NCBI GenBank assembly: GCA_023261645.1
Contig: JAHFOO010000008.1
Location: 1 to 56,070, forward strand
Source: Candidatus Moraniibacteriota bacterium
Lineage (GTDB): Bacteria; Patescibacteriota; Minisyncoccia; Moranbacterales; UBA1568
DNA: 56,070 nucleotides
Direction: 5' to 3'
Translations under genes and position numbers: made by a program
Shown: piece by piece, positions 37,595-54,805 of the stretch
Position numbering within the stretch: the stretch's first letter is position 1
How the letters are laid out: each line of letters starts with the position of its first letter
Notes under the pieces: generated by a model
Databases searched by the model: none
Seen by the model: the letters and a program-made list of their open reading frames with translations, nothing else
Told to the model about the DNA's origin: nothing

Positions 37595-37929
37595 ATGGAC
37601 TGTCCCACAATACGGAATCCTTTCAGGTGGTATTGAAGGCAGAAGTGGCAGATCAGGACTACTCAAAGGCCAATATGAACTTTTATACTGATACAGGACA
37701 GCTAAGGGGATTGCCGGGGCGAAAGATAGCAGGAAATTACGATTTGGAGTACCATTTATCTAGGACAAGTAATAAAGACGTCCAGAAGCAGATTCTGAAG
37801 CTTGTAGGGCAATACAGCAAAGAGGAAGGGGTTACTATCTCGTACTCACAGCGTCGTATTTGCTTCAAAAAAGGCCTGACCTTTTTAAGTGCAGAAATAG
37901 GGAAAAATGGGGTTAAAATAAGGAAGTAG
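37594..37929 (+). CDS. Detached C-terminal segment of the serine recombinase (in frame only after circularisation)
   Basis: HGLSHNTESFQVVLKAEV...IRK* (111 codons) is in frame with recombinase codon ACT 54758-54760 across the reconstructed attP. Confidence 0.7.
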   Translation, partial: HGLSHNTESFQVVLKAEVADQDYSKANMNFYTDTGQLRGLPGRKIAGNYDLEYHLSRTSNKDVQKQILKLVGQYSKEEGVTISYSQRRICFKKGLTFLSAEIGKNGVKIRK

Positions 37930-38006
37930 AGAAAAAATGAACCGACTGAGGTAATGAACCTCTTCGGACGCTTAATTTATTAATATTTATATTACAATTA
38001 CAGGGC

Positions 38007-39456: not shown

Positions 39457-39462
39457 AAAGAT

Positions 39463-40044
39463 ATGTTTTGTAAAAATTGTGGAAAAGAAGTCAGTCAAGA
39501 AGCAAATTTTTGTAAAAATTGCGGCGACTCAACAAAAGAATTAATTGTAGAGTCACTAAACAGTACAAACAAAAGTGTGGTTTCTGAGAAAAAACTTGTC
39601 CCAGAACTTACAGAGGATGGTATTTCTAAGTACAGAGGTATTCATGGTTGGCTTATAGTAGTAGTTTTGGGGCTGTTTATTACAACTGGTTATGTAGGTT
39701 TTCAATTTCTGGATATATTTTTTGGCAGCGTTCAATATGGTGAAAATACTGGACTATTTGTTTATGATTTTTTGAGCATGGGCTCAGTTACGGTTTTGTC
39801 TATATATGTTATTTACCTTTTTTTTACAAAGAAAAGAAAGTTTCCAAAATACTATATTTCTTTGCTGATTCTTCTTATGGTAGTTAATATAATTACGCTC
39901 ATAGTAGTATCATCCTACTCAGTAACCGGAAGTGATCTTGCGGAATACTCAAATAACGCCGGGAGAGCCACTGTTCAAGCGATAGTTTGGGGATTATACG
40001 CAACTAAGTCTAGGCGTGTCAAAGCGACATTCGTGGAAAATTAG
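39463..40044 (+). CDS. Zinc-ribbon plus DUF2569-like membrane protein
   Basis: MFCKNCG...ANFCKNCG; GIHGWL...W.LY..KSRRVKATF. Confidence 0.78.
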   Translation: MFCKNCGKEVSQEANFCKNCGDSTKELIVESLNSTNKSVVSEKKLVPELTEDGISKYRGIHGWLIVVVLGLFITTGYVGFQFLDIFFGSVQYGENTGLFVYDFLSMGSVTVLSIYVIYLFFTKKRKFPKYYISLLILLMVVNIITLIVVSSYSVTGSDLAEYSNNAGRATVQAIVWGLYATKSRRVKATFVEN

Positions 40045-40067
40045 GCAATTATATAACTAAATGATCT

Positions 40068-40604
40068 ATGGATTGTCCGAGTTGTAGAAAAAGTATTGGT
40101 GCAGATGCTGTTTTCTGTAAGTACTGCGGAGTGGAAGTAGCCCCAATGCGAGTGAAACTTCTGGCTGAAATGTATATCGAGCCAGAAACACAAGAACATC
40201 CATCTGCGTTGCCCGTTGCACAAAGTATAAAAAAAATTCCACAACCTTCAATATGGGAGTCTATTAAAGGCTTGTCTTCATTATGGGATGTAGTCAAAAG
40301 TTCATCTGGAGTTGTCAGAGTGATTTTGTTATTTATAGGTCTGAATGTAATTTTATGGGGAGCTCAAGAGCTTTACTATTGGGGTGATTCACAAAAGATG
40401 GGGGAATTAGATACTCAAATTACGAGTATGGATAGTCAAATAAAAAGTATAGAAAGCTTTCCAAATACCACAACTCAAAGCCAATACGAAAGTTTAATTA
40501 ATAAGAGAAACAAGGCTGCAGATGAGTATAACGCTCTAGTTAAATCGTCTGGTACTAGATGGTATTTAATACCGATCCCTCTAGGTGGCCATTCACTAAA
40601 ATAA
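40068..40604 (+). CDS. Zinc-ribbon, single-TM protein
   Basis: MDCPSC...AVFCKYCG; TM; short coiled coil. Confidence 0.72.
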   Translation: MDCPSCRKSIGADAVFCKYCGVEVAPMRVKLLAEMYIEPETQEHPSALPVAQSIKKIPQPSIWESIKGLSSLWDVVKSSSGVVRVILLFIGLNVILWGAQELYYWGDSQKMGELDTQITSMDSQIKSIESFPNTTTQSQYESLINKRNKAADEYNALVKSSGTRWYLIPIPLGGHSLK

Positions 40605-40621
40605 CTATTAACTTTAAAAAT

Positions 40622-41203
40622 ATGTTTTGTACAGATTGTGGGAAGTCACTAGAGAAAGACAGCGTTTTTTGTGAATTCTGTGGGGCTAAACAAGCAGAAG
40701 CAGGGCCGACAACAGAACCGGGGGCATCTATTTCGGATCAAGTAATGAGTTTAAAAGGCGAGAGTCCAATCAATGCTTCAAAAGAAATTTTAAATAAAGA
40801 ACTTAAACAGATGGCTGACCATCTTGAGTTTCTAGGGTATGGGATTGAAAAGTTAGAAACTAGCGGAGATGACAAAAGAGAGAATGTTTTTGCACAGCAT
40901 CCAAGTAACCTTGATTTTACATTACTGGAAGTATTCCCAGGCTTTATTATTCTCAAAGTGCTAATGGCGACAAAAAAGAAGCCATCTTCAGAGATCGACG
41001 CTTTTATTAATGATATGAATAAGAACTTTATAATTTCGAAAATCTATCGTGAAATAGAGAATGAAACTGTATACCTCAGAATCGAATCAATTTATATGGG
41101 TGTTTACGTTAAGGATCTGTTTGTAAAGTTTATGGACCTGAACATTAGGGAGCATAATCAATTACGATCATCAGATGATTTTACTAATTTGTTTGTAAAT
41201 TAA
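40622..41203 (+). CDS. Zinc-ribbon protein with possible YbjN-like C-terminal domain
   Basis: MFCTDCG...SVFCEFCG; C-terminal alpha/beta domain. Confidence 0.68.
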   Translation: MFCTDCGKSLEKDSVFCEFCGAKQAEAGPTTEPGASISDQVMSLKGESPINASKEILNKELKQMADHLEFLGYGIEKLETSGDDKRENVFAQHPSNLDFTLLEVFPGFIILKVLMATKKKPSSEIDAFINDMNKNFIISKIYREIENETVYLRIESIYMGVYVKDLFVKFMDLNIREHNQLRSSDDFTNLFVN

Positions 41204-41207
41204 ATTA

Positions 41208-41744
41208 ATGGAAAAATTTAAATCAATAGTTTCGGCATTCTTTGTTATTATCGGCATAGCTTTTGGTATCTTCATATTTGTTAAAAGTTCTGTGCTTACC
41301 ATATGGTCGTCACCATCTGTTCCCGAAACGTATGCAATTAATGGTGCTGATGGTAGATCGATTAAAATAATATTTTTGCCAGAAAATAAAACTATAATGT
41401 GGTATAAAGATCCCAATGTTGGTTCTGAAGAATATAACTTAGTCGAGATGAAGGGAACATATGGGACGCATTATTTCTGGGGACTATGGAAAATAGAAGG
41501 CCCCGGTATTGCTTTTGGGTATAGATTTTATCCTGATGGAACTGAACCAGTTGTAATGGAGACAAAAACAATTCAAAAATACATGAACGGAAAAGGCGAT
41601 CCCAACTTTTCTCCAGTTGGTAAAATTACAAATACCACTTGGCTATTTCGGAAAGATTCTGCCAAGTTTCAGGATATGTGGTTGCAAAAAGAAGAAAACA
41701 ACAATTTATTTATTTCACAGTTATTAAATAACTTGGAGAGGTAA
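41208..41744 (+). CDS. Hypothetical membrane-anchored beta-rich protein
   Basis: N-terminal TM; in operon. Confidence 0.65.
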   Translation: MEKFKSIVSAFFVIIGIAFGIFIFVKSSVLTIWSSPSVPETYAINGADGRSIKIIFLPENKTIMWYKDPNVGSEEYNLVEMKGTYGTHYFWGLWKIEGPGIAFGYRFYPDGTEPVVMETKTIQKYMNGKGDPNFSPVGKITNTTWLFRKDSAKFQDMWLQKEENNNLFISQLLNNLER

Positions 41745-41764
41745 TTAATTTTAATTATAGTCAT

Positions 41765-42076
41765 ATGAAAAAGATTTTAATTTTCCCGCTGCTTTTGTCG
41801 GCATTATTACTATCAGGCTGCAGCGATACAAATTCCTCGGCACTTACTAACACTGCCGTGCCTTCAACAACATCGTCTAAAGCAACCGTACCTGCCGTAG
41901 CTCCCTCTACAAAAACATCCGCTTCTGAAAATACAACAAATCCAAATGTCAAAAAAAGTACCTCTGGGATCTGTCATGCTAAAGGGTCTACCTATTACGG
42001 TAGAACGTTGAATTTTACTGCTTACGATACTATAGATGATTGTCTTAATAGCGGGGGAAGAATGCCAAAAAAGTAA
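41765..42076 (+). CDS. Lipoprotein with small Cys/His C-terminal domain
   Basis: Lipobox LLSGC; S/T linker; KKSTSGICH..GSTYY.RT....D.CL.SGGR.PK. Confidence 0.75.
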   Translation: MKKILIFPLLLSALLLSGCSDTNSSALTNTAVPSTTSSKATVPAVAPSTKTSASENTTNPNVKKSTSGICHAKGSTYYGRTLNFTAYDTIDDCLNSGGRMPKK

Positions 42077-42081
42077 TTTGA

Positions 42082-42729
42082 ATGAGTATGGAGTTCGGTA
42101 CTGAAAACATGGGCAGAAAGAAAGCAATAGTATTATTTGCAGCCCTTTTTGTTTTTGTAGTTGCTGTCGCAGTTTATGCCGGATCATTACTCAGGCACCA
42201 ACGAGATGATATTGGGGTAATAGCTTCTCCTTTGACTGATACTCCTGCCAAAGAGATAGGTATCTTGCCGGAGCAAGGGACTGTTAGCGTGGAATCGGCT
42301 GAGGCAAAATGCCACGTTGTTGATGGCCTCCCTGACCTATTATGCACACCTGGGGTAACCGATTCTCGGGTTACACAAGAAAATATTAAAGACACAATTT
42401 GTAAGTCTGGTTATACAAAGACAGTCCGTCCTCCAGTTACAGTGACTTCAAAAATCAAAGAGCAAACAATGAAAGACTATGGATTTACAGATAGCCCAAG
42501 TAACTATGAGTTAGACCATCTTATTTCCCTGGAGCTTGGCGGCTCCCCGGATGATGTAAAGAATTTATTTCCTGAGCCCTATAATATTGAATTGGGTGCC
42601 ACAAAGAAAGACACTGTGGAAAATTATCTTCACGCTCAAGTATGTAGCGGGCTACTCACGCTTAAGGAAGCTCAGAAGGCAATCTCGGAAAACTGGGTGC
42701 TAGTGTATCAGACAAATATTGTGAAATAG
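42082..42729 (+). CDS. Secreted HNH-like nuclease-family protein
   Basis: N-terminal TM; LPD...TPG, TIC..GYT..VRP, YELDHLISLELGGS....NL.PE, VCSG. Confidence 0.65.
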   Translation: MSMEFGTENMGRKKAIVLFAALFVFVVAVAVYAGSLLRHQRDDIGVIASPLTDTPAKEIGILPEQGTVSVESAEAKCHVVDGLPDLLCTPGVTDSRVTQENIKDTICKSGYTKTVRPPVTVTSKIKEQTMKDYGFTDSPSNYELDHLISLELGGSPDDVKNLFPEPYNIELGATKKDTVENYLHAQVCSGLLTLKEAQKAISENWVLVYQTNIVK

Positions 42730-42756
42730 TTTGATATAATGATCAACTGAATTTTT

Positions 42757-44766
42757 ATGGTAGATGGAATCTTTATTTTTCTGGTTAGTGCGGCGGTTGT
42801 TGCTTTGGTGACAATCGCTAATAGATTGTTTGCGAATGGCGGAGATTCTTTGCGAGATAAGAAAGAGGGCCATAATGAAAAGAAACTTGAAACAGTACAG
42901 CTTACCGTAGTTAAAAGTGAGGCTAGTTTAAAAAAAACTGCTAATACAGTAGAAGAAATACCTGGTAAAAAGAAACTTGAAGTAACGACAACTCTACAAA
43001 AGAGAGTATGGACAGTAATAAAAAGAATCAGTAGAAAATATAACCACCTACTTCTGTTTGAGCTCCTAGTGATTCTTACCTGCTTATTTGGCTACATATC
43101 TATCTACAAGCTAGGATCGCCAAATGCTGAATATAACTCTTTCTATAATTATTATTTATTACAATACTTTTTTCTCAAAAAAATACTTCTAACTATTGCT
43201 ATAGCGGTAGGGGTAGCACTTTCTTTAATAATCGTTTTGGCTCTATTGAAAAAGAAACGTTTTAAGAAGAAATACGCAGTCCATTCTTTTTCAGTAGTTG
43301 CGGTCATAATCCTGGCTTTCAATATATCCTTTTTAGCTATCTATGCTTTTTCTTTTGTTGAAACTAGATACTTGCAATATGAAATATCTTCAAACCAAGA
43401 GACGCATGGACTTATCTGGGGCAATGATAAGCTTGTGTCAAAATTAGAGAGCGAAGTAGCGTCACCGCGGATAGTGAAAGCAGAAGAGAACCCAAGCAAT
43501 CAAATAGTTCGGTATATTGTCTCAAATAGAAAGAATAGAGGAGACTACTATTTGCAGAAGATATTAAATGGTGTACTAAACAAATTTCCTACAAACCTCG
43601 GTATTCCTAGTGAGGCTCCTTTGTTCATGTATAGTGATAATTTGTATATAAGAAAACTTGAAAAAGATTCTTATGCAGCGATCAGTCCAATTTTAGGCAA
43701 GCTTTTAGTAAAAGGTGCTTTACCAGATAGGAATATTAAAGATGAGCCCTCCCTCCTTGTAATGGATCGAGAAGAATACAATACCTTCCGTATAGACCAA
43801 ATTAATGAGCATATAGCAAAGATGAAGGATGCCATAGCACGAATTACGAAGGTAGTGAACTCCTACTACTCGGCAGTTTCCTATGATAAAGGGAGGGTTA
43901 ATTATAATGTAGGCATGGCAAATTCGATGATAGCAGAAGGAAACTCAGCCTATTCAAGTTGTATCCGAGCACAAAGCTGTACCTATAACTACATCCCCGG
44001 AACTTGCACATACTATCCATACGTTTATTGTAGTCCTGGATACTCTTATCAAACTTGCCTGCCAAGATATACTCCCTCATACTGTTCGGGTCAAATGGAT
44101 TTTTACTACAACCTTGCTGACGGATATAATAGAAATGCGAATGAATGGAGAGATCAATTGGGTTACGATCAGTATTATCTTGGAGTATATGTTGATTTAA
44201 GAGATACAGTAGAGACATATAAAGCTATGGCTGAAGCGTCTAAAGAAGACGTACCTTATGAGTTAGGTTTGTTTCAGCCGGATCTTGGTATAAAGGTTGT
44301 TTTGGAATCAGATAATCCAGAAACCGTGGCGGATAATATAGGTATCTTAGTCCATGAGTATCTTCACTACACGAGCTATGTTCCCGATATGAGTTTACCG
44401 ACATTCTTTGAAGAGGGTCTGACAGAATATTTCTCAAGAGAGATTGTTGACAAAAATATGGGAGTAAAGACAAAGATCGGGTACCCACTGATAACAAAAG
44501 TAATCGAAAGGATGACCGAAAAGATTTCGGAACAAGAGTTCAGAGACATATACTTTTCTAAAAATAGTGCTCTCCTAACGAGTACCCTGGATCGAGCTTA
44601 CGGTAAAGATTTTTCAAAGAAATACGAACTCTATTTTGAATTCATTTCCTATTTGCCACCAAAGGATGCTCTAGAAATTACAAATAAGTTTTTGGATAAG
44701 ATAGGTGTTGAAAAAATAGTTGAAGAAGACTTGTATAGTAAAGCGAGTGAGTTTAATGCCAATTGA
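42757..44766 (+). CDS. Membrane-anchored zincin-like metalloprotease with Cys-rich insert
   Basis: Several N-terminal TM helices; HEYLH...EEGLTEY. Confidence 0.7.
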   Translation: MVDGIFIFLVSAAVVALVTIANRLFANGGDSLRDKKEGHNEKKLETVQLTVVKSEASLKKTANTVEEIPGKKKLEVTTTLQKRVWTVIKRISRKYNHLLLFELLVILTCLFGYISIYKLGSPNAEYNSFYNYYLLQYFFLKKILLTIAIAVGVALSLIIVLALLKKKRFKKKYAVHSFSVVAVIILAFNISFLAIYAFSFVETRYLQYEISSNQETHGLIWGNDKLVSKLESEVASPRIVKAEENPSNQIVRYIVSNRKNRGDYYLQKILNGVLNKFPTNLGIPSEAPLFMYSDNLYIRKLEKDSYAAISPILGKLLVKGALPDRNIKDEPSLLVMDREEYNTFRIDQINEHIAKMKDAIARITKVVNSYYSAVSYDKGRVNYNVGMANSMIAEGNSAYSSCIRAQSCTYNYIPGTCTYYPYVYCSPGYSYQTCLPRYTPSYCSGQMDFYYNLADGYNRNANEWRDQLGYDQYYLGVYVDLRDTVETYKAMAEASKEDVPYELGLFQPDLGIKVVLESDNPETVADNIGILVHEYLHYTSYVPDMSLPTFFEEGLTEYFSREIVDKNMGVKTKIGYPLITKVIERMTEKISEQEFRDIYFSKNSALLTSTLDRAYGKDFSKKYELYFEFISYLPPKDALEITNKFLDKIGVEKIVEEDLYSKASEFNAN

Positions 44767-44779
44767 TTTAAAAGAGAAA

Positions 44780-45265
44780 CATATGATAGAAGAAATGTCA
44801 CAAATTATTAAAGATGAAAAAAATGGTTTTTTAGAAAAGTATCTTAATCGGGATACGGCTTTTATAACTGTTATTATTATTCTCGCTGGATTCTTTTTAG
44901 TACCACAGATATGGAGTAAAAATCCGTATAAGGCAGGTACGCAGTATTTTGTTTACCTTTTCCCAGATATTAATTCATCACTAAACTACAGACTTCCCGC
45001 AGATATTCTAATAGAGGAAGACTGTACTGGAGGGGAATGCGAACACGATATTCAAATAGAGACTGTTTACCTTGAGAATGGAAGTAGTAAGTATTTTGGA
45101 TGTATCGTTCAGCTCAAATATGAAAATTTCTGTAAAGATCAGGATGGAAAGGAATGGATGATTGTTTTGAGTGATTGGGAAGAAGCGAAAACAATAAAAG
45201 AGATTAAAGATTCAAAGAAAAAGGTAGATGATATTGTAAATAGCGTGATGAGTGAGGATCATTAG
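44780..45265 (+). CDS. Hypothetical single-TM protein
   Basis: ORF with TM and four Cys; start uncertain (44720-44800). Confidence 0.55.
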   Translation, partial: HMIEEMSQIIKDEKNGFLEKYLNRDTAFITVIIILAGFFLVPQIWSKNPYKAGTQYFVYLFPDINSSLNYRLPADILIEEDCTGGECEHDIQIETVYLENGSSKYFGCIVQLKYENFCKDQDGKEWMIVLSDWEEAKTIKEIKDSKKKVDDIVNSVMSEDH

Positions 45266-45288
45266 TTGTTCACCCTACAGAAAATACT

Positions 45289-45522
45289 TTGTATGAACTA
45301 GTGGCAAAGAATGGAACTCAAGTAACATCACAAACGCTCAATGTTCAGTATCCTTTATCAGTGAAGAAAACAGTTGCTCAAAATCCTGTAAATGTGGTTA
45401 ATGAAGCTTCTGATACTTCACAAAATGAAAATAATTCTAGTGCAGTCGGACTGTTGGTGGCGATAGTGGGTGGGGGAACTGTGTGGGCGGTAAGAAAATA
45501 TTTAGGAAAAAGGGTGCTCTAA
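45289..45522 (+). pseudogene. Probable gene remnant with C-terminal TM anchor
   Basis: No ATG start; ends in a TM helix plus basic tail. Confidence 0.35.
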
Positions 45523-45568
45523 GAGAATAGATTGTTAGAAATTTAGTGAAAGAAAATTATTGTGACTC

Positions 45569-46930
45569 CTAATTCGATATATTTCCTGATGGAGCCTTCT
45601 TCCTACGGATGTATTTAAAAAACTTTCTTTGTTGTGAGGATATTCCTCGGCCTATGTTTTTCATAACTTCCCCAGCATTTTTTATATAGATGCCTCCTTT
45701 TCTTTTCTTAATTAATCCAATGGCGCTTGGTTGTTTACGTGGATTTTTGTAAGTTTGTCTGTCTAAAAACTTTTGAACTTTCTTGTGCGCCTTTCTGTAT
45801 GCATTCTGTAATGTTTTTCCACGTACTTGGACATTAGATCCATTAAATTCGAAGCCGAGATAGTCAATAAACTTTCGCCCCAATACTTCTCCGTTCCCCG
45901 TTTTAACTTCAACACATACCACAGAACCGTCGCATAGTCTTTTAAAAGTAGCGATAAATGCCTTAGCTGGATTTATCTTTAGTGCATGTAATTTTATCGA
46001 CTCGCACAACGAAGAAAAAACAGCCTCTTTTTCGGGAATGGCACAGACGATTGCAATATCGTCACTGTATCTTCTGTATAACGTGTGAGGAAACTTTTTT
46101 ACAAATTCATAATCAAATAGAGACATGTAAATATTTGCTAAAAGCCCACTCAGAGCACTTCCCTGGGGTATTCCTATAGGCGTTTTGTTTTCTTTAATAG
46201 TTCCATTCCGTCCCAACTCGTATATTGCCTTCACTAGTGGATACTTATTGTGCCTAACCTTTTTCGAAACTTCTAAAATAAACTTTGCATATGTACTAAA
46301 CTTTCTTCGGTGGTGACTATCGTTTAACACATACCTAAATGCTGTTAAGGATCTCAGCACTTTGTATTCATCTCCCGACAGTTTGTTGCCGAGAATCATG
46401 GAAATATTTTCTTTCAGTATCCTGTGGTTTAAAGTATCAAAAAACTTTGAAATATCTGCAATAATTACCGCGCATTCGCCGTTACTTTTGATGTGGTCAA
46501 ATATCTCATGCGCAAAAAAGATATTGTTTTTTCCTTGTAGATTGTCCTCTTCCTTTGTAGCTTTCCTGCTCCTGTATGCTATTGTGTTAGTCTCAATACC
46601 CTTTTCGCGCACAAAAACTTCATATTTTTTACCCCATTGATATGCATAGAAACTGTATATGTGTGCATCAAGATGAGAGGCGTACATGATGGGTCTCTCC
46701 TTTATAGTTCGTATAGGGTTCTTATCTTTATCTTTTCGATATCGGATATCTTTCTTAATGAATTTTACTAAAGGGAGAAATTGATGCGTGCTTATATTTT
46801 TCAATGTAGTTACAACTTGCTCAAAGTCTCGAACATTGTCTATGTCTAGAGTTCTATCAAAATGTCTATATGCACGTTTTCTCTGTTTTGGTTTTAGCGA
46901 CTCCTTCCATTGTGTGTACACCTCTTCCAT
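45569..46930 (-). CDS. drt2: Defense-associated reverse transcriptase, DRT2 / UG2 family
   Basis: KR.Y.HFD, H.FLP, RPI.YASHLD.HIY.FYA, KNNI.FA, DISKFFD.L.H.ILK, GIPQGS.LSGLLANIYM, YRRYSDD, YLGF.F.GSN...R: motif order recognised as DRT2 RT; standalone, with ~320-nt structured upstream region. Confidence 0.88.
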   Translation of the reverse strand: MEEVYTQWKESLKPKQRKRAYRHFDRTLDIDNVRDFEQVVTTLKNISTHQFLPLVKFIKKDIRYRKDKDKNPIRTIKERPIMYASHLDAHIYSFYAYQWGKKYEVFVREKGIETNTIAYRSRKATKEEDNLQGKNNIFFAHEIFDHIKSNGECAVIIADISKFFDTLNHRILKENISMILGNKLSGDEYKVLRSLTAFRYVLNDSHHRRKFSTYAKFILEVSKKVRHNKYPLVKAIYELGRNGTIKENKTPIGIPQGSALSGLLANIYMSLFDYEFVKKFPHTLYRRYSDDIAIVCAIPEKEAVFSSLCESIKLHALKINPAKAFIATFKRLCDGSVVCVEVKTGNGEVLGRKFIDYLGFEFNGSNVQVRGKTLQNAYRKAHKKVQKFLDRQTYKNPRKQPSAIGLIKKRKGGIYIKNAGEVMKNIGRGISSQQRKFFKYIRRKKAPSGNISN

Positions 46931-46944
46931 AAATTTATTTCGTA

Positions 46945-47250
46945 TATGTAAAAACCCTTGTCCTCTGGCGAGCTTATCAGCATGCTCTTGGACAAGGGTT
47001 CTGTGGGCAAGCCCAGGCTATATTCATTGACATGTGTCCAAAAGGAGACACAAGGCTGACGGAACTACATTGATATAATAGTAATGACTATGACTCAAGA
47101 ATGGCTGCACTCTATCGTCGCTGACATCATTATTATGTTGTTCATCACGACCGCGAGCCGAGGCTTGCATATCGTTGTAAACACATCGCCTAACACCCCT
47201 AGAAGCAAGACGGTAGTATAGCCAATTCCTTCTTGAACCGAACGTTAGTC
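46945..47250 (-). ncRNA. DRT2-associated ncRNA (template plus scaffold)
   Basis: Lies between a sigma70 promoter and the RT start. Hairpins 46953-46963/46990-47000, 47004-47015, 47033-47038/47047-47052; long-range pairing of 47084-47106 with 47220-47252. Confidence 0.8.
47070..47183 (+). other. Candidate 114-nt neo-type repeat unit (hidden gene formed by cDNA concatenation)
   Basis: TATAAT at 47074-47079 near the unit start, TTGCAT at 47165-47170 near the end, ACA at 47067-69 and 47181-83 (offset 114), one stop-free frame. Confidence 0.65.
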
Positions 47251-47255
47251 ATAAC

Positions 47256-47284
47256 ATCATATCACAATGGATCGGTTTCCGCAA
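47256..47284 (-). promoter_or_regulatory. sigma70 promoter of the ncRNA-RT unit
   Basis: TTGCGG (47284-47279), N17, TATGAT (47261-47256) with extended TG. Confidence 0.7.
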
Positions 47285-47337
47285 GAGCTGAAGATGCTTC
47301 ATCTCTCTCGTTTTAATTTTGATAACGTTCTCATCTA

Positions 47338-47604
47338 CTAATAAATACGGAAGGCCTTACTCTTCTTCTTCCACATGCATGCGCTTATAGCGTCTTCTGA
47401 TGTTTTAAATTTATTATACTCATCAAATGTATAATAATCCCCTTTATCATTGGACACGACATTCTGTTCCCTTGGTGGCTGATAGTGAACTTCGCTGACG
47501 CACCAACGAGTTTTAGAAATGTACCACCATCCACCCAAAATCGGTACTCCAACTAATAGAGCAATGCCAAGAACCTTAATAATCTTTTTGTCAGTGTTAT
47601 TCAT
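47338..47604 (-). CDS. Small single-TM protein
   Basis: N-terminal TM; two Cys. Confidence 0.6.
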   Translation of the reverse strand: MNNTDKKIIKVLGIALLVGVPILGGWWYISKTRWCVSEVHYQPPREQNVVSNDKGDYYTFDEYNKFKTSEDAISACMWKKKSKAFRIY

Positions 47605-47904
47605 AGTGTTTTATTGTCGTTATTGAACATTATTTGCTTCTGTCTCCTGCCCCGTCGACCCGTTAAATAGGGGATTAAAATTAATTTGATTTAAAAATCA
47701 GGAAAAAAAATTAACAAAACTATTATTTTAAGCCATTACTTCGTTTAAAAAGGTATTTTGTTTTTTTATTCTTTAAACAAAACCCAGCTAAAATATTTTG
47801 ATAAATTTGATTTTTTTAGAAAAAAATATTTTGTCTTTTTCTGTTCAGGTCGTCATACATTTTTTAACTTAAGGGACTCTCAATCTCAATCCTCCTACCC
47901 CTGG

Positions 47905-48168
47905 CTACCAGAGATTAAAAAATACATACAAAGAAAGTGCCGTGATTAACAATTCTGCAAATAGACCAATGACAATCCAAGATTTTGTTACTGGAGTACT
48001 ATGATTTATTCCATTTTCTCGAACATCTTTTCTTAATGCAGAACTAGCAGAAAAATCGACCATGAGCAGAGCAACTATTGTCCAGCCTAGCTGTGATGGC
48101 AATGCAGAATCTGCCATTGACAAAAATATGAGTGCAGCAATACCAATTAGGTTAGAAATTATCGACAT
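47905..48168 (-). CDS. Small 3-TM membrane protein
   Basis: Hydrophobic 87-aa ORF. Confidence 0.6.
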   Translation of the reverse strand: MSIISNLIGIAALIFLSMADSALPSQLGWTIVALLMVDFSASSALRKDVRENGINHSTPVTKSWIVIGLFAELLITALSLYVFFNLW

Positions 48169-48200
48169 AGCGTTTTAATTAAGAGTTTCCACACGCGCAC

Positions 48201-48722
48201 CTATAGCTCCTTTTTTCCTATGCACTGGTTATAGTCAAAGGTATCTATGCTTTTCTTATTGCTTCTGCATCGACTTACTCTCTCATCCGTTTTAGTGTTT
48301 TGGTAATCGACGCTTAAATCTTCGTTTGCACACCCATCCTCTCTAAATTGCTTTTCCGCTAACTCTTTCCCAATCTGAGAAACTATCATGCCCTCTATAG
48401 GCAGTCTTCCTTGTAAGCACTCTATCTTTTTTTGGTTTACTCTAGACTCATTCATTTTCTGATTTACTATAATAGCGTCCATTTTTTGTTTTTCTGATTT
48501 TTCTGCAAACAAAGCAAGTGTCCCAAATACTATAAAAATAAGTAGAGCAATCGGTAGCAAAGCAATTATAATTTTTTTAGATTTATTATAGGAACTAGTG
48601 AGCTTCTGAGGCGTTAGCTGTTTTTTGATATTTACCATCGTACCTTCCAACCATTCGCCACAAAACCGACACTTTTTTGCATCATCCTTTACTTCTTCTG
48701 AACAAAATGAACATTTTTTCAT
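48201..48722 (-). CDS. Zinc-ribbon, single-TM protein
   Basis: MKKCSFCSEEV..DAKKCRFCGEWL; TM. Confidence 0.75.
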   Translation of the reverse strand: MKKCSFCSEEVKDDAKKCRFCGEWLEGTMVNIKKQLTPQKLTSSYNKSKKIIIALLPIALLIFIVFGTLALFAEKSEKQKMDAIIVNQKMNESRVNQKKIECLQGRLPIEGMIVSQIGKELAEKQFREDGCANEDLSVDYQNTKTDERVSRCRSNKKSIDTFDYNQCIGKKEL

Positions 48723-48743
48723 AATAGTTATTTCTTTTAAACT

Positions 48744-49301
48744 TTACAGGGGCGGATATACAACCCAAATAACAACCATAATGACAATAAAGAAGATTAT
48801 CCAGCTCCATTTCATTTTCATCTTGGCAGTCAACGTGTATTTAACTGGGATGAGAATATTCCAACTAAAAAGAAATATTGTTATCCCTATTCTCCAATTG
48901 AAAAAGATATACACTAACCCGAATAACGCACATATCGATATCGCATTATTTCCATACTTATGGAAGTAATATTCGGGATAAAACATTCTGTTTTGTTCTC
49001 TAAATTTTATATATTCATCGGGGCTAACCGTGTCTTTATACTTTTTAAATGCTTTATGCCTCGCAATAAAAAGAGGTATATAAAAAATGATAACACCCGC
49101 AAATGCAAAAATTAAAAACCATAAGAAATCGAGCTGGACGAGAGAAATGACTCCTGAAAACAAAACGCCTATCCCTACTATGCTTATCCAATGCATCTTA
49201 GCCGGACTAAGAACTTCTCGAAGTATATCTTTTTGCTCTATAGTCATTTCATCTGCGTCTAAGCCAAAACCTTTATCAAACATCTCTTTGTCGTTATCCA
49301 T
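48744..49301 (-). CDS. Hypothetical multi-TM protein
   Basis: About five hydrophobic segments. Confidence 0.65.
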   Translation of the reverse strand: MDNDKEMFDKGFGLDADEMTIEQKDILREVLSPAKMHWISIVGIGVLFSGVISLVQLDFLWFLIFAFAGVIIFYIPLFIARHKAFKKYKDTVSPDEYIKFREQNRMFYPEYYFHKYGNNAISICALFGLVYIFFNWRIGITIFLFSWNILIPVKYTLTAKMKMKWSWIIFFIVIMVVIWVVYPPL

Positions 49302-49319
49302 AATCTTTTTAGACCTGAA

Positions 49320-49574
49320 TTAAAAATAGTTCTCATGTTTGTTTCTGTCATGAAACCACGCCCAAATAAATAGCCACGCAACGATATATGTTAATGAAGT
49401 TTTGACACTCCAGTATGAGTCTGTAAGCCAAGCCATTCCTTCCCCAGTTCTTCTAAGAAAAAAAGAAAGTCCCATACAAAAAACCAGAATGAGTCCTGGC
49501 GTCAATGCGGCAAAAAACAAAGATACTAATATTTCTAAACAATATCTCCAAAAATTCGATTTTTCACTTCCCAT
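49320..49574 (-). CDS. Small 2-TM protein
   Basis: First gene of the leftward cargo operon. Confidence 0.6.
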   Translation of the reverse strand: MGSEKSNFWRYCLEILVSLFFAALTPGLILVFCMGLSFFLRRTGEGMAWLTDSYWSVKTSLTYIVAWLFIWAWFHDRNKHENYF

Positions 49575-49604
49575 AACTTTAACTAAGGATTATTTTTTAG
49601 ATAA

Positions 49605-49748
49605 CAAAAAAGGACAGCCGAGTTGTTCACCCACAACAGACAGCCTCGAAAGGAAGTCCAATCATGGAACTCGACTGCCCCTTACTACCCACGATTGGAT
49701 AGAAAAAAAGACAGTTTCCTTTCGAGAAAATCTATTGTAGGTGAACGG
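49605..49748 (-). promoter_or_regulatory. Structured leader (long hairpin whose loop pairs with the 3' flank, then U-tract)
   Basis: gttcacctacaata/tgttgtgggtgaac, ctcgaaaggaa/ttcctttcgag, tccaatcgtgg/ccatgattgga; loop gggcagtcgagtt complements downstream aactcggctgtcc plus TTTTTT; TATAAT just upstream (~49765-49770). Confidence 0.6.
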
Positions 49749-49821
49749 ATAAATATTATTACATATTATAGAAAAACACAAACCCAGCTTGATTGTAGAG
49801 TCTGCTTAGAGTAGGGTAAGA

Positions 49822-50730
49822 GTGAGTATTTTTGGATTCAATCTTATGAGCAAAAAAAAGCGGAATAATTATCAAGAGCAAGTGGAGGATCTTATAAAAC
49901 AAGGTAAAGATTTTGAGTATATAGAGAAATTTACTCAAGAAAATTATCCTGAGGAATGGGAGAGGGAAAAAGTGTCTATTGAGACATTCAACAAAAGGAT
50001 ACTAGAAGAAAATGAAAGGAGTATGAGCGCACAAGCATACACTAAGATATCACGTCATTTGGCTGATGTTGTAGTTAGTGCAGATTTTATAGATGAGATA
50101 CAAAAATTAAGGAGAAAATACAAAATACCAGAGAATGGGTTCTCTGTTAATGACCCACATGAAATTGAAGAGCATACCAAAATGAGTCTATGGCCAATCG
50201 AATGGAAATATATAGATGAAGACGAAGACTTAGACTTATACTTTAAAATTGAGGATGAATTAATTCGCCTTGCTATTGCTTTTGGATTACCGCCTCAATG
50301 TAGAGTTTTATTTGACCATTTAGTTTACCGGGATAAGAATTCGCAACTAAACTCAGACGCATCTTTGTGTTATATCAGCGATAGGCTGGAAGAACGAAAA
50401 TATAAAGATGAAATGGTTAATGATTTCTATTACCCGATAGCTATCAGGGTTCATCCGGGGGCATCTCAAAATGATATAACGGATTTTATTAAAAAAAATT
50501 ACACAAGCATTATTAAGCCACTTCAGGAAAAATACGAGGATAAGATGTGCCCTGTAGGAAAAACTCGAAATCGAAAAATCGATATACGGCAGCGTAACGA
50601 TTTCATATACGAAAATAGGGAGAAAAGCGGGAAAGAAATAGCTTCATTGGTATTAAGAAAATTTGGAGTATCTATTGACCATGGGCACGTTCTTAAAATA
50701 ATTTCCTTAGAGAGAAAAAGAAGAAGTTAA
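49822..50730 (+). CDS. Hypothetical protein, possible C-terminal HTH (element regulator?)
   Basis: 302-aa ORF ending RNDFIYE....GKEIASLV.RKFG..I....VLKII; start probably ATG 49846. Confidence 0.65.
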   Translation: MSIFGFNLMSKKKRNNYQEQVEDLIKQGKDFEYIEKFTQENYPEEWEREKVSIETFNKRILEENERSMSAQAYTKISRHLADVVVSADFIDEIQKLRRKYKIPENGFSVNDPHEIEEHTKMSLWPIEWKYIDEDEDLDLYFKIEDELIRLAIAFGLPPQCRVLFDHLVYRDKNSQLNSDASLCYISDRLEERKYKDEMVNDFYYPIAIRVHPGASQNDITDFIKKNYTSIIKPLQEKYEDKMCPVGKTRNRKIDIRQRNDFIYENREKSGKEIASLVLRKFGVSIDHGHVLKIISLERKRRS

Positions 50731-50772
50731 GTGTGGCATAGTTAGTTCTTATCCAAAAACAACCCGATCGAT

Positions 50773-50802
50773 TAACCTAGCTTTAAATAGCTAGGTTTTT
50801 TT
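50773..50802 (+). terminator. Intrinsic terminator
   Basis: aacctagct/agctaggtt plus T-run. Confidence 0.7.
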
Positions 50803-50838
50803 ATTTCCATCTGTAATTTTAATCATTAAGTAAAAAAT

Positions 50839-51186
50839 ATGTTCAGCCAGGATTCGTTATCTAAGTTACTAACAAAAAAAATAACATCTATGGAAGGCAA
50901 GGGATTTGGTATAGGGAGGATTTTCAACCGCTTAAGAAAAATGAGGGTTTGCGAATGCTTAAGTGATTTAGCGATACTAAGACTAATTCTTTATGAATTG
51001 CAAGGCTTAGAGAGGCTTCCATCAAGAAGCAAGATTTTGCATCATTTTCGAACCAAAATACCGAAAGAAGATTGGAGAGGAGTTCTGAAGACAGAAATTT
51101 TGAGCGATCTTTGTAATCCTATGAATATATCAAATTTTAAGGCACTTTCTTTGTGTAAGAGGTCTGTTAAATTGAAAAATCGATAA
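50839..51186 (+). CDS. Hypothetical basic protein
   Basis: 115-aa ORF in the element core module. Confidence 0.5.
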   Translation: MFSQDSLSKLLTKKITSMEGKGFGIGRIFNRLRKMRVCECLSDLAILRLILYELQGLERLPSRSKILHHFRTKIPKEDWRGVLKTEILSDLCNPMNISNFKALSLCKRSVKLKNR

Positions 51187-51195
51187 GTTACCTCA

Positions 51196-51357
51196 ATGAC
51201 CAAAGAATACCAGGTAAAACTGATGTTTTCTGAAAAAGAAGAAGATGAAAATAAACTTCTTTTGGTCTTTGAATATATCCTTAATCTTCAAAATAAAGAT
51301 AAACAAGATGAATCAAAAATACACGCAGGAAATGTTGAGGGAAATAGAAATAAGTGA
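51196..51357 (+). CDS. Small 53-aa ORF
   Basis: Manual ORF MTKEYQVKLMFSEKEEDENKLLLVFEYILNLQ...RNK, overlapping the next start. Confidence 0.4.
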   Translation: MTKEYQVKLMFSEKEEDENKLLLVFEYILNLQNKDKQDESKIHAGNVEGNRNK

Positions 51358-51952
51358 GCTTTCCGATTTTTCTCATGAACTGGAAAAAGTATGGAGGAGA
51401 TCTCGTTTAAAATTCACGGATAAGGAGCTTGTCTCCCTATTTCCTGAAGCCAAACAAATTATCTCTCAAAAAATTGAAGAATGGAAAGAAGTTTTAAAAT
51501 TGAAAAGAGAAACAGTTAGGTGTTCATTGAAAGAAATCTATAAACTAAATGTTGATGATCTATCAAAATGGTTTGGAGAATATATGGTTGAGGTATTCCT
51601 TTTCAATGAGGTAAAGGGAATTTATAAGCATATTGGTAGATTACAAAGACAGTTGATGCAGATTAATGGTGAACAAGGGGTTCGAATAGAATTTTGGGAC
51701 AATCAATTAGAGAAGGCACGAGGAAAACCAATAGCGGATATTGCAGAGCAAAATCTCCTAGTAAGAAATATCGGAAATAGATTTTCAGCTAAATGTCCTT
51801 TTCATGAAGACAAAACACCAAGCTTTTATATTTATCCAGAAACAAATACATATCACTGCTTTGGATGTCAGGCTCATGGGGATGTAATTAATTTAACCAT
51901 GCATTTATACGGACTTTCTTTTAAGGAGGCGGTACAAATGCTTAATCAATAA
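51308..51952 (+). CDS. CHC2 zinc-finger protein (DnaG-type Zn-binding domain at C-terminus, no TOPRIM)
   Basis: CPFHEDKTPSF......YHCFGC..HGDVI.......SFKEAV. Confidence 0.88.
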   Translation: MNQKYTQEMLREIEISELSDFSHELEKVWRRSRLKFTDKELVSLFPEAKQIISQKIEEWKEVLKLKRETVRCSLKEIYKLNVDDLSKWFGEYMVEVFLFNEVKGIYKHIGRLQRQLMQINGEQGVRIEFWDNQLEKARGKPIADIAEQNLLVRNIGNRFSAKCPFHEDKTPSFYIYPETNTYHCFGCQAHGDVINLTMHLYGLSFKEAVQMLNQ

Positions 51953-51958
51953 TATCGT

Positions 51959-53005
51959 ATGGATGCCTTTGAAAAGTTGAAAGAAGAAGCTAAAAATGAA
52001 GTCATTTCTGAGGGAAAAGGAATGAATTTTCTCACTATTAAGGATGTGTGGAATATGGTATTCCCTCCAAATAGATGGGTTGTGGATCAAATTGTCCCTT
52101 CTGAGGGTATTACAATCATCTCTGGTGCACCTGCGAGCTATAAGACGTGGCTTATCCTTCAGATGGCTATTAACATATCAAGAGGAGAATCGTTCTTAGG
52201 AAAGTTCAATACTGAGAAGGGGAATGTATTGATGATTGATGAGGAGAATCACCTTCAATTAGTTAAAGATAGACTTATTCTTTTAGGAGGAGATGATTTG
52301 CTCTCTATCTGTTTTCTTTCTCAACAAGACTTCTTAATCACAGACGAGAGAATGGTGAAGAAAGTGCTATCTATGTGTGAAGAGAAAAGTATATCAGTTA
52401 TATTTATCGATTCACTTGTGAGAATAAATCGTGCTGATGAGAATGATGCCTCTAGAATGTCTGAAGTCTTCCGAGCTATAAGAAGCCTTTGTAAGGCAGG
52501 GAAGACAGTTATTCTTACCCATCATGAGAAGAAAGAAGGGACATTTAAGCTCTCTCCTCAATCAAGAATGCGAGGATCATCAGATATTTCTGCTTCAGTT
52601 GATGCTCATCTAGCGATATCTCGAGATAGAGATAATAAGACATTTCTGATTCTCGAGCAGGCTAAGAATAGACGAGAAATGGAAATTGCTCCGTTTGGAG
52701 TCGAGGTTAAGAAAGAGAATAATCGTGTTTGGTTTGAATATAAAGGAGATTATGATATGGGGAAAAATAAGAAAGGTGAAGCCAGAGAGTCTATCCTCCA
52801 GATGCTCGAAGGCTATCCTGATGGTATGACGAAAGGAGATATTTCAATACAGATTTCTGAAACCTGTAAGATTGGAGCAAAGAGTTGTAGAGAAGCGTTG
52901 GATGATTTAATTAAAGAGGAGCTTGTGAAAGAAAAACCTGGTGTTGGTAATACGAAACACTGTGTATTAGCGAAATATTCTGTTGATGAACAAGGGGAGA
53001 TTTGA
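51959..53005 (+). CDS. RepA-like / AAA_25 (RecA-fold) ATPase-helicase
   Basis: W.VD.IVP..GITIISGAPASYKT (Walker A), IDEEN, FIDSL, THHEKK, RGSSDI. Confidence 0.85.
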   Translation: MDAFEKLKEEAKNEVISEGKGMNFLTIKDVWNMVFPPNRWVVDQIVPSEGITIISGAPASYKTWLILQMAINISRGESFLGKFNTEKGNVLMIDEENHLQLVKDRLILLGGDDLLSICFLSQQDFLITDERMVKKVLSMCEEKSISVIFIDSLVRINRADENDASRMSEVFRAIRSLCKAGKTVILTHHEKKEGTFKLSPQSRMRGSSDISASVDAHLAISRDRDNKTFLILEQAKNRREMEIAPFGVEVKKENNRVWFEYKGDYDMGKNKKGEARESILQMLEGYPDGMTKGDISIQISETCKIGAKSCREALDDLIKEELVKEKPGVGNTKHCVLAKYSVDEQGEI

Positions 53006-53072
53006 AATGGCGAATTGGCATGTATATATAGTAGTGCCATTTTGCCGATTCAAAGTGTGGTATAATGTAATT

Positions 53073-53190
53073 ACTTATCCAACAATGTTACCTGCGAGTT
53101 TTATTTTGCCAAACTAAAAGGGTAACCATGCTGACAAACCTCGCGGAATGTTGGATAAGTCATGGTTACCCCTTTAGTTTTTATTTTTAT
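53073..53190 (+). promoter_or_regulatory. Structured leader of the recombinase (interleaved inverted repeats plus U-tract)
   Basis: acttatccaaca (53073) / tgttggataagt (53149-53160); aaactaaaagggtaaccatg (53111-53130) / catggttacccctttagttt (53161-53180); TGnTATAAT at 53058-53066. Confidence 0.62.
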
Positions 53191-53194
53191 TATT

Positions 53195-54805
53195 ATGAAT
53201 AAGGCAGCAATATATCTTCGTGTTTCTAGCGAAGAACAAGTAAGAGGTTTTGGACTAGAAGTACAAGAAGAAAAACTGAGAGACTACTGTAAGTTGTATG
53301 ATTTTGAAATTGAGGAAAAACACGTATTTCGTGAGGAGGGTGTTAGCGGCGCAGAGAGAAATAGACCAGAGTTAAACCGAATGCTTGTTTGTGCTGAGAA
53401 GAAAGAATTTTCTGTTGTTCTCGTATATAAAATAGATCGTCTATCAAGACTATTACTACACCTTCTTGAGGTTACAAATAAATTCGAACAACTTGGTGTT
53501 GGCTTTCGTTCTGTTACTGAGCCTATCGATACAACTAACTCTTTAGGAAGATGTATTTTTCAGATTCTCGGATCATTTGCAGAGTTTGAAAGAGGGGTCA
53601 TCAGAGAGAGGACTTATGGTGGTCAAATCAAGAATAAACAGCAAGGAAATTGGGTGAGCGGTATTACTTCTTATGGTCGTGATTATGATAAAGTCACAAA
53701 AAAACTTGCAGTGAATGAAGAAGAAGATAAATGGGTTCAAAAAATGTTTGAATGGATGACGAAAGATAGAATGTCTTTACATGGTATTGCAGATAGACTT
53801 AATGCTTTAGGTGTCCCAACAAAGTATGACAATCTTGGAAAAAAGAAAAAGGTGAACGGAACTTGTTATTGGAGACCGAGAGCCGTAGGAAGAATTATTG
53901 CTAACAGTACCTATACTGGCACCTTCACTTATAATAAATATGAGAATTCAACAGTTGGCAGTAAGTTACGACCAGAGGATGAATGGATTCCTATTGAAAC
54001 ACCTAAAACAATCAGTAAGGAAATATTTGATCTAGCTCAAGAACAACTTAAATCAAATAGGCGCTTTTCATTAAAGAATGCAAGACATATTTATCTTTTT
54101 TCTGGAATACTTAATTGTGGGGACTGCGGGGGCAGATATGCAGCGAGTTATGATACGGGTAGGAAGACGATGTCAGAAATACAGAAGAAAAGATATTACT
54201 GTAATAATACTCGAAAATATGTTCGTCAGCTGACGTGTAAAGTTCCTAGTATTACTGAACACAGACTAGCAAACCCTATTTGGGAGAAACTTCTTGGTTT
54301 GCTGGAGGATCCAAATGTTGCACTTGAACAATTAGAAAAATTGAACGAGAAAACTGGAGAGCTTAATGATGCTCACACAAGACTAGCCGAAGCAGAGACT
54401 CTTTTGGAGAAAAATACTGTAAAACAGAAGAAGCTTTTAGATGCTTTCTTAGAAGTGGAGGGCGGACTTGAACAGAAGGACTTTCTCTCTAGAAAGCATG
54501 ATTTAGAGGAAGATAAGAATAAGCTTTTAGATGAGAAGCGACGTTATGAGTCAATGCTTATATCTGATGGCGAGAAGAATACTCGTGTAAATGCGATTCA
54601 GATTATGTATCGAAAAATCAAAGAAAACCTTACTAATATTTCTTATGAACAAAAGAGAGAGGTGCTGAAGATGTTGGTAAATAAGGTTATTGTTACTGGT
54701 TCTGAGATAGATATTCACTGCAATATACCCTATCAATTTGCTTTTGCGGAACAGAGCACTCGTTTCCCGTATCGATCCCGGAAGGATTCGGCAGAAGGGA
54801 AGTGA
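53195..54805 (+). CDS. Large serine recombinase (integrase); integrated-state form reads across the att site
   Basis: AAIYLRVSS.EQ, EEGVSG...RPEL, VYKIDRLSR, AEFER..I.ER, Zn ribbon LNCGDCG...YYC...C, coiled coil; last 14 codons derive from host DNA. Confidence 0.95.
   Translation: MNKAAIYLRVSSEEQVRGFGLEVQEEKLRDYCKLYDFEIEEKHVFREEGVSGAERNRPELNRMLVCAEKKEFSVVLVYKIDRLSRLLLHLLEVTNKFEQLGVGFRSVTEPIDTTNSLGRCIFQILGSFAEFERGVIRERTYGGQIKNKQQGNWVSGITSYGRDYDKVTKKLAVNEEEDKWVQKMFEWMTKDRMSLHGIADRLNALGVPTKYDNLGKKKKVNGTCYWRPRAVGRIIANSTYTGTFTYNKYENSTVGSKLRPEDEWIPIETPKTISKEIFDLAQEQLKSNRRFSLKNARHIYLFSGILNCGDCGGRYAASYDTGRKTMSEIQKKRYYCNNTRKYVRQLTCKVPSITEHRLANPIWEKLLGLLEDPNVALEQLEKLNEKTGELNDAHTRLAEAETLLEKNTVKQKKLLDAFLEVEGGLEQKDFLSRKHDLEEDKNKLLDEKRRYESMLISDGEKNTRVNAIQIMYRKIKENLTNISYEQKREVLKMLVNKVIVTGSEIDIHCNIPYQFAFAEQSTRFPYRSRKDSAEGK

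Follow-up and report, generated by a model that had tools for sequence, protein, structure and literature searches.

To our knowledge, DRT2 is the only system known to write a gene from a non-coding RNA. It was described in 2024 (10.1101/2024.05.08.593200; PMC12039810), and in the account given by Wilkinson et al. (2024, PMC12039810) the Klebsiella DRT2 RNA combines a hairpin called the 5′ handle with a template that is held loosely, a pseudoknot and another two hairpins. The primer-binding site of that RNA, AUAUC, is formed by template bases 142-146, and the template ends at base 148 and is followed by a second ACA (PMC12039810). In the same source, TATAAT and TTGACA boxes come to stand 17 bp from each other only where repeats join, units measure 111-129 nt, and the Neo protein is hydrophobic (PMC12039810). 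The neo mRNA is antisense to the DRT2 RNA (Tang et al. 2024, 10.1101/2024.05.08.593200). As presented in their text, both founding papers work from near relatives of a single Klebsiella system, and they take the flanking ACA pair as the jump signal (10.1101/2024.05.08.593200, PMC12039810). The supplement of Tang et al. describes 2,116 homologues, together with additional covariance models built for other clades (PMC11100668), and its Table S1 (supplement 2) contains two DRT2 reverse transcriptases (RTs) from Parcubacteria for which RNA, cDNA and Neo are all entered as NA. How, then, does a DRT2-like locus from such a lineage compare with the Klebsiella system? Here we analyze an RT gene and its upstream RNA at positions 45569..47284 of the window, which is the whole stretch of DNA studied, 56,070 nt of contig JAHFOO010000008.1 (assembly GCA_023261645.1) from a Candidatus Moraniibacteriota bacterium, a member of the candidate phyla radiation (CPR).

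The comparison makes it likely that this locus is a complete DRT2 module, from a subclade known among named records only in Patescibacteria, and that it would operate by a Klebsiella-like neo mechanism. As in the published description of the Klebsiella system, a single RT gene lies downstream of an RNA on the same strand, and in that RNA a 5′ hairpin, a template that folds into hairpins and three 3′ hairpins can be recognized. AUAUC is placed two bases ahead of the downstream repeat motif and is overlapped on the cDNA strand by TATAAT, a -35 and a -10 box reach a distance of 17 bp only across a repeat junction, a putative pseudoknot links the stretch behind the template to the loop of the last hairpin, and the candidate unit, a multiple of three in length, has a single open circular frame and a hydrophobic repeat peptide. 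The two systems also differ. The window’s clade is without ACA-1 or ACA-2, with GU, GUU or UGU instead, its units measure 105-114 nt and not 120, the window’s -35 box is TTGCAT where Klebsiella has TTGACA, and no ribosome-binding site was seen. The RT carries YSDD where the solved Klebsiella chain has YCDD, and it aligns with that chain only over residues 14-386 (E=9e-42). Lastly, the host is a CPR bacterium. The parts of the locus are as follows.

45569..46930, minus strand: DRT2-clade RT, 453 aa, with YSDD, assigned by profiles, a solved structure and a tree
46950..47249, minus strand: DRT2-type non-coding RNA, ~300 nt, defined by alignment and covariation, both ends estimated
47256..47284, minus strand: putative promoter of the RNA and RT, TTGCGG (47284-47279), 17 nt, TATGAT (47261-47256), with a conserved -10 box
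47190..47248, minus strand: 5′ hairpin domain, with P1 (47248-47238/47202-47190) and an inner hairpin (47234-47228/47213-47206), corresponding to the 5′ handle of Klebsiella
47182-47140 and 47136-47075, minus strand: hairpins P2 and P3, respectively, within the inferred template
47055..47059, minus strand: UCAGC, 5′ strand of the putative pseudoknot, whose other strand is GCUGA (46981-46977), located in the P5 apical loop
46952..47052, minus strand: 3′ scaffold, with P4 (47052-47033), a small hairpin (~47016-47003) and the long P5 (47001-46952)

Several searches place the RT in the DRT2 family. Two Drt2 profiles of PADLOC match it at 343.5 and 237.2 bits while the next family, RT_UG17, reaches 82.3, and the top NCBIfam match is likewise the Drt2 model, at 295.2 bits. 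Because that score lies below the model’s equivalog cut-off of 390 bits, the RT is best described as a divergent DRT2 member and no equivalog of the model’s seed set. A search of solved structures returned the Klebsiella DRT2 RT 9c0i, along with five further entries, at E=8.9e-42, with query residues 14-386 aligned to residues 7-352 of chain 9c0i_A; the next solved structure after the DRT2 entries is a retron-type RT at E=8.7e-5. YSDD occupies residues 288-291 and is invariant in 30 relatives, so that the Y-x-D-D catalytic motif is intact. The protein search with the RT retained 435 proteins at E <= 1e-20 among 3934 candidates, and 29 of the 435 are 48-66% identical to the window’s RT. Among named records, the nearest are bins that carry the labels Patescibacteria, Paceibacteria, Taylorbacteria and Saccharibacteria (41-50% identity), and relatives on metagenome contigs reach 60%. 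One of the related loci (loci are numbered with the prefix L), L009 from a Patescibacteria bin, has its RT in two pieces, 2995-3789 and 4107-4532, and is probably a broken copy.

The phylogenetic placement agrees with the profile matches. A quick-search IQ-TREE tree of 53 rows, built without named UG references and with loci of partial match left out, separates 50 DRT2 rows from three other RTs with a Shimodaira-Hasegawa-like approximate likelihood ratio (SH-aLRT) support of 100; a fourth row intended as outgroup, L020, fell within the 50 ingroup rows. The window’s RT sits in a clade of 10 rows, supported at SH-aLRT 100 and with a stem of 0.88, in which every named member belongs to Patescibacteria, and two other CPR RTs (L131, L198) are placed elsewhere in the tree. 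One of the Parcubacteria RTs of Table S1, judged by eye from its printed sequence, shares conserved blocks with this clade (PMC11100668). At the level of protein sequence, then, profiles, structure and tree show that the RT belongs to the DRT2/UG2 clade. An earlier reading of the letters alone (the sequence-only reading) had proposed just such a DRT2/UG2 RT with an RNA in cis, 453 aa long with YSDD and without a partner protein, and had named PADLOC and an RT phylogeny as checks. Both checks were run, with Drt2 the best PADLOC family and the window inside the DRT2 rows, and the proposal is upheld by PADLOC, NCBIfam, the solved structure and the covariation described below.

A conserved, covarying RNA of ~300 nt lies upstream of the RT on the same strand. 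Mean column identity of this RNA is 69% over nine distinct relatives whose RTs are only 48-60% identical, and the similarity extends from the -10 box to the RT start. The sequence-only reading had noted ~300 nt of structured non-coding sequence here, and ~325 nt lie between the -10 box and the RT ATG. The window RNA folds at -97.1 kcal/mol (z = -2.69), and one of 100 shuffles folds equally well. The covariation check of upstream regions that had been suggested was carried out over the nine relatives. The RNAalifold consensus comprises 73 pairs, with 95.9% of 653 cells paired as against 37.7-49.4% when the partners are slid by 1-3 columns, and 21 pairs with both sides changed as against 3-8 in the slid controls; none of 500 shuffles matched the pairing level or the count of double changes. 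In the 5′ domain, pairing amounts to 100% in helix 1 and 96.8% in helix 2, and both sides have changed in 4 and 5 of their pairs, respectively; helices 6, 7 and 8 of the 3′ scaffold have 5, 2 and 1 such pairs. Between P3 and P4 an invariant single-stranded AUUAUAUCAAUGU is found. The three 3′ hairpins ahead of a U-run that had been noted are present (the small one was judged by eye in each sequence); P5, the last of them, is made of an inner stem and an outer stem that measures 12 bp where 11 bp had been given, and it is followed by UUUUU, 20 nt ahead of the RT ATG.

The pairing of UCAGC with GCUGA in the P5 loop holds in 45 of 45 cells and includes one compensatory change, UUAGC with GCUAA in L024; 46 of 500 shuffles equal it. 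By eye, the same two places carry GCUGAC/GUCAGC in the sister loci L001 and L009 and GUUAAC/GUUAAC in L003. A pairing of UCAGC with the 3′ strand of P1 was rejected, being broken in two relatives (by eye), and the pseudoknot with the P5 loop fits better. Pairing of the two variable linkers on either side of the template into a basal stem was also rejected, cognate pairs being no better than mixed ones (permutation p=0.57). The sense strand of the RNA is stop-free in the window for 222 nt (47027-47248, minus strand), and a small sense-strand protein was discarded as an explanation on finding this frame closed in three of the nine relatives.

The promoter TTGCGG-N17-TATGAT that the sequence-only reading had pointed out is present at 47284-47256. 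It is a weak match to consensus, with 3/6 positions at -35 and 5/6 at -10, and TG stands one base upstream of TATGAT. A consensus scan found no promoter and no terminator at its thresholds (promoter shuffles average 1.4). Support for TATGAT as the -10 box comes from the alignment, since the box aligns in nine relatives and sequence similarity starts there. The sequence-only reading had further held that the RNA 5′ end (47252-47220) is complementary to 47106-47084, over the neo start, and could gate access to the template. The complementarity does occur in the minimum-energy fold of the window, but it is lost when 8 nt are trimmed and is unconserved. As a helix over the neo start, its 34 pairs are 59.0% paired across the alignment, compared with 39.6-49.3% when slid and 95.9% for the consensus fold, and the 59.0% is itself too high, since one of the aligned rows was the source of the helix. 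The gating helix was rejected as unconserved and as competing with the covarying helices P1 and P3.

Comparison with the RNA model already available leads to the same architecture. The Rfam family RT-12 (RF03016) represents the 3′ scaffold of classical DRT2 RNAs; it matches L002 at 2875-2986 (65.6 bits) and L007 at 2852-2962 (36.5 bits), and both matches end just ahead of the RT start. The order of hairpins in RT-12 is that of the window’s three 3′ hairpins, and its consensus has a 5′ GCGGC able to pair with the GCCGC that the last hairpin carries in its loop, an apparent pseudoknot, on our interpretation of the printed consensus, that the structure line leaves unmarked. Unlike these loci, the window has no RT-12 match at E <= 10, and its close relatives L024 and L105 have none at the gathering score. 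Over the whole window the gathering scores of Rfam return a tRNA only, and at E <= 10 the region 46800-47500 yields only chance-level matches to eukaryotic RNA families. The matching layout and the missing RT-12 match together indicate that the fold is the known architecture with a sequence that has diverged beyond the existing model. The suggestion that the fold may differ from the enterobacterial one was thus overstated: the architecture is as published, and it is the sequence and the motif flanking the template that differ. Near two related DRT2 RNAs a tRNA-Gln gene was observed upstream, in L106 at 2052-2123 (~60 nt away) and in L105 at 612-685 (~1.5 kb away), which suggests tRNA-linked integration in those genomes.

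Which part of the RNA would be copied, and what would the copy encode? The 3′ boundary of the unit was set by position, with AUAUC, AA and UGU standing in the places that the primer site, two bases and ACA occupy in Klebsiella. For the 5′ boundary, 23 in-frame choices were tried in nine relatives against three criteria, namely a stop-free frame, a shared GU and a TTG hexamer at 17 nt, and only a unit of 114 nt in the window (U=114), with its 5′ boundary at the base of P2, gives 9/9 for all three. The features of the candidate unit are listed here.

47070..47183, minus strand: inferred template and rolling-circle unit, 114 nt, containing hairpins P2 and P3, boundaries inferred
47072..47076, minus strand: AUAUC at the position of the Klebsiella primer-binding site, followed by AA and then UGU (47069-47067)
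47071..47079, plus strand: TGATATAAT, extended -10 box on the cDNA-sense strand near the unit start, conserved
47165..47170, plus strand: TTGCAT, -35-like box in the cDNA sense, 13 nt short of the unit end

The signals around the unit boundaries are largely shared by the relatives. AUAUC is found in seven of the nine, and the remaining two have AUACU. In the cDNA sense, TATAAT is invariant in 9/9 and its TG is present in 7/9, and the -35-like hexamer starts with TTG in all nine. Joining units head to tail in silico puts TTGCAT 17 nt upstream of TGnTATAAT, and such a spacing arises only across the junction. No conserved ACA pair was found at the template boundaries in the window’s clade, an ACA at the 5′ site occurring only in the window and L024.

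The plus strand of the window is stop-free over 47060-47218, and the homologous frame is open in all relatives. With the inferred boundaries the units are 114, 111 or 105 nt long, and one circular antisense frame is stop-free in nine of nine relatives; the other two antisense frames hold 3-21 stops per three units. When alignment columns were shuffled, all nine frames were open in 51 of 20000 trials. Every unit contains an in-frame ATG. Gap runs inside the unit measure 3, 3, 6 and 3 nt, so that four of four are multiples of three, as against none of 15 in the flanking RNA, and entropy by codon position in the unit is 0.60, 0.41 and 0.67. The pattern of base-pair change also differs between the two regions, in that helices within the unit vary mostly through wobble changes (1 and 0 pairs changed on both sides) and flanking helices through double changes (4, 5 and 5). 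From these boundaries, the unit would encode a strongly hydrophobic Neo-like repeat of 38 aa, predicted in the window as IDIIVMTMTQEWLHSIVADIIIMLFITTASRGLHIVVN, with a grand average of hydropathy (GRAVY) of 1.23; values across the clade are 0.96-1.25, and the Idiomarina unit has 0.86.

As a check on the method, the same script was applied to the Idiomarinaceae DRT2 loci L007, L008 and L010, whose RTs belong to the same family (31-33% identity) and which likewise have an antisense open circular frame. It found 120-nt ACA-to-ACA units, unlike those of the window, with exactly one open circular frame in each. Their in-silico junction is TTGACAGCTTGT|ATAAT, such that TATAAT is formed at the junction itself; we observe that TATAAT there falls only 5 nt after TTGACA, compared with the published 17-bp spacing in Klebsiella. 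For the unit junction of the sister clade (L001, L003, L009) there are several in-frame options and none stands out. Two further candidates in the window’s clade were set aside. A 150-nt unit reaching the 5′ hairpin would contain indels that are not multiples of three and falls in a range, above 117 nt, where units carry stops in at least two of nine relatives, and CCGTC, which the window has as a direct repeat at a distance of 151 nt, lies out of frame and lacks conservation. The sequencing runs listed for the locus include no RNA run. The assembled contigs of four groundwater DNA runs from two studies showed no joints, loose ends or differences at the locus, although contigs cannot show cDNA repeats.

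We propose the following model for the locus. One promoter would transcribe the RNA and the RT jointly, and the RT would bind the 5′ hairpin and the pseudoknotted 3′ scaffold. Priming at AUAUC, it would copy the 114-nt template from 47183 down to 47070. The repeats would become double-stranded after phage infection, and each unit junction would then assemble TTGCAT, 17 nt and TGnTATAAT. The resulting transcript would carry an endless frame of strongly hydrophobic 38-aa repeats, and these may stop host growth.

A number of observations weigh against this model. The nine RNA relatives amount to about five or six independent lineages, with L027 and L032 near-identical, and within the clade the pseudoknot rests on one compensatory change, which is weak evidence. 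The RT-12 model and the equivalog cut-off of the NCBIfam Drt2 model both leave the window outside, as described above. The -35-like hexamer fits TTGACA at 3-5 of six positions, the microhomology at the junction is just 2-3 nt (GU, GUU or UGU), a clear ribosome-binding site is lacking, and the first ATGs come 4-10 nt past the -10 box. A circular open frame is obtained for the window alone in 5118 of 20000 shuffles, so the open-frame signal comes from its conservation and not from the window as such. Six of nine relatives have the unit open on the sense strand as well, and indels in multiples of three do not tell which strand codes. Finally, the text of Tang et al. regards Neo annotation as difficult in divergent clades, where other mechanisms are possible (10.1101/2024.05.08.593200). 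In a rival reading, the same RT and RNA would make another product, a non-coding cDNA, single-copy or repetitive, and no Neo-like protein, the antisense frame being a side effect of RNA structure and base composition. The chance frequency of the window’s frame, the open sense frame, the lack of ACA motifs and of a clear ribosome-binding site, the failure of Tang et al. to annotate Neo in divergent clades and the NA entries of their Table S1 for two Parcubacteria RTs all fit such a product. We nevertheless regard it as unlikely, given that nine of nine frames are open where column shuffles achieve this in 51 of 20000, that indels respect multiples of three inside the unit (4/4) and not outside (0/15), that the -35 and -10 boxes reach 17 nt only across the in-frame junction, and that every unit has an in-frame ATG.

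If Neo is made, the junction could still lie elsewhere, for instance in a unit of 90 nt, of 117 nt, or of 102 nt joined at a shared UUA. The short microhomology of the 114-nt junction leaves room for this, a 90-nt unit puts at 17 nt a hexamer, TTGACC-like in some relatives, that fits 4-5 of six positions in seven of nine, and the UUA pair of the 102-nt unit is conserved. On the other hand, the 90-nt unit has a motif match in one of nine relatives and would end inside the P2 loop, the UUA junction was rejected because it takes TATAAT out of the unit, the 117-nt unit has no -35-like box and a motif match in none of nine, and longer units run into the stops mentioned for the 150-nt candidate. The 3′ boundary of the 114-nt unit also agrees with the published position of the primer-binding site (PMC12039810), and another junction therefore seems to us improbable. 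Least credible of all is an RT from a group II intron, a retron or another UG family. What speaks for such an origin is that Pfam returns RVT_1 alone and that NCBIfam adds weaker matches to group II maturase TIGR04416 (78.8 bits), Drt3a (66.4) and retron St85 (32.8). These scores lie far below those for Drt2 and equally far under the matches’ own cut-offs of 300, 200 and 235 bits, respectively, no Rfam family reaches its gathering score at the locus, group II intron and retron RNA families included if Rfam holds them, and the tree sets the window’s RT among the DRT2 rows.

The module is part of a larger insertion, for which the following features were identified.

37607..54749, no strand: integrated mobile element, ~17.1 kb, low GC content, ends estimated from protein alignments to within a few tens of bases
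53162..54805, plus strand: large serine recombinase at the right end of the element (Pfam Resolvase 127.6, Recombinase 67.6 and Zn_ribbon_recom 44 bits)
51245..53005, plus strand: replication-type genes from Pfam matches, a CHC2 zinc-finger (primase-like) protein and an AAA_25/DnaB-like ATPase

GC content is 0.42-0.49 up to ~37 kb and 0.34-0.38 over ~38-54 kb. The element is flanked by two parts of one lamin-tail/PKD protein, an N-terminal part (54693-56051, minus strand, residues 1-434) and a C-terminal part (36929-37666, minus strand, residues 21-242). These parts abut on one strand in 27 of 30 relatives (15/18 of the same genus and 12/12 of other genera), and the best same-genus copies are single open frames of 585-784 aa; of the remaining three relatives, two have no match and one a weak partial match. 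The gene being intact in relatives and split here, the insertion spans ~37607-54749, and this host copy of a surface-protein gene has probably been inactivated by the element. Serine-recombinase elements within genes can excise and restore them. In having a three-domain recombinase at its edge, an insertion in a host gene, a lower GC content and primase- and helicase-like genes, the element resembles serine-recombinase integrative elements; it differs in that no phage structural or conjugation genes are recognizable in the Pfam matches and most open reading frames (ORFs) are without a family.

The claim that the module is carried by a mobile element is thus well founded, whereas the description of its surroundings as an anti-phage island is not. 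PADLOC assigned none of the 21 other ORFs of the island to a defence family beyond a domain-level match to a primase zinc finger, and with no other defence match the insertion is a mobile element with one recognizable defence module and not a defence island. Across 11 related loci no partner protein recurs beside the RT other than a serine recombinase. This enzyme adjoins the RT in six of the 11 (three were checked with Pfam, and the six include close kin), and the window’s recombinase is only 22% identical to one from a related locus. The left part of the element (38007-41744, plus strand) encodes a run of small proteins in which zinc ribbons at the N or C terminus and the domains DUF6804 or DUF2569 are recognized, and at 42082-42729 (plus strand) there is a 215-aa protein with a faint match, below the cut-off, to a non-specific DNA/RNA endonuclease family (E=0.0085).

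The host genome measures 840 kb in 12 contigs at 95.8% completeness, and a core gene at 27901-30471 is 85% identical to that of a Candidatus Moranbacteria genome bin. The small genome (0.84 Mb) and this identity identify the host as a CPR bacterium, as had been supposed from the letters. The RT clade is present in one of 50 genomes of the genus and in two of 401 sampled genomes of the phylum, both counts including the host, and the module is therefore rare in the phylum.

A search of full-text literature, with the figures of Tang et al. outside its coverage, found no paper naming both DRT2 and Patescibacteria, and a co-mention of DRT2 with ‘candidate phyla radiation’ proved unrelated. Table S1 enters NA for its two Parcubacteria RTs (PMC11100668); for the window’s clade, an RNA and a candidate unit are defined here. 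We hypothesize, with the case for and against about evenly balanced, that this DRT2 subclade, with named members from Patescibacteria only, performs RNA-templated gene synthesis with a GU/UGU jump site in place of the ACA pair, using units of 105-114 nt to make endless repeats of 35-38 very hydrophobic residues, and that it moves between ultra-small episymbionts on serine-recombinase elements. If true, an RNA and a neo would be defined for the first time in DRT2 systems of CPR bacteria, entered as NA in the published catalogue, and it would mean that the jump motif is free to evolve. Primer site, promoter geometry, putative pseudoknot and open frame are all retained in the clade, yet ACA is replaced; if confirmed, that replacement would separate what the mechanism needs from incidental features and would offer shorter natural units for testing. 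Reduced CPR genomes are poor in recognized defence genes. The locus described here indicates that such genomes can acquire DRT2 on a small integrative element, at the cost, in this case, of a surface-protein gene.

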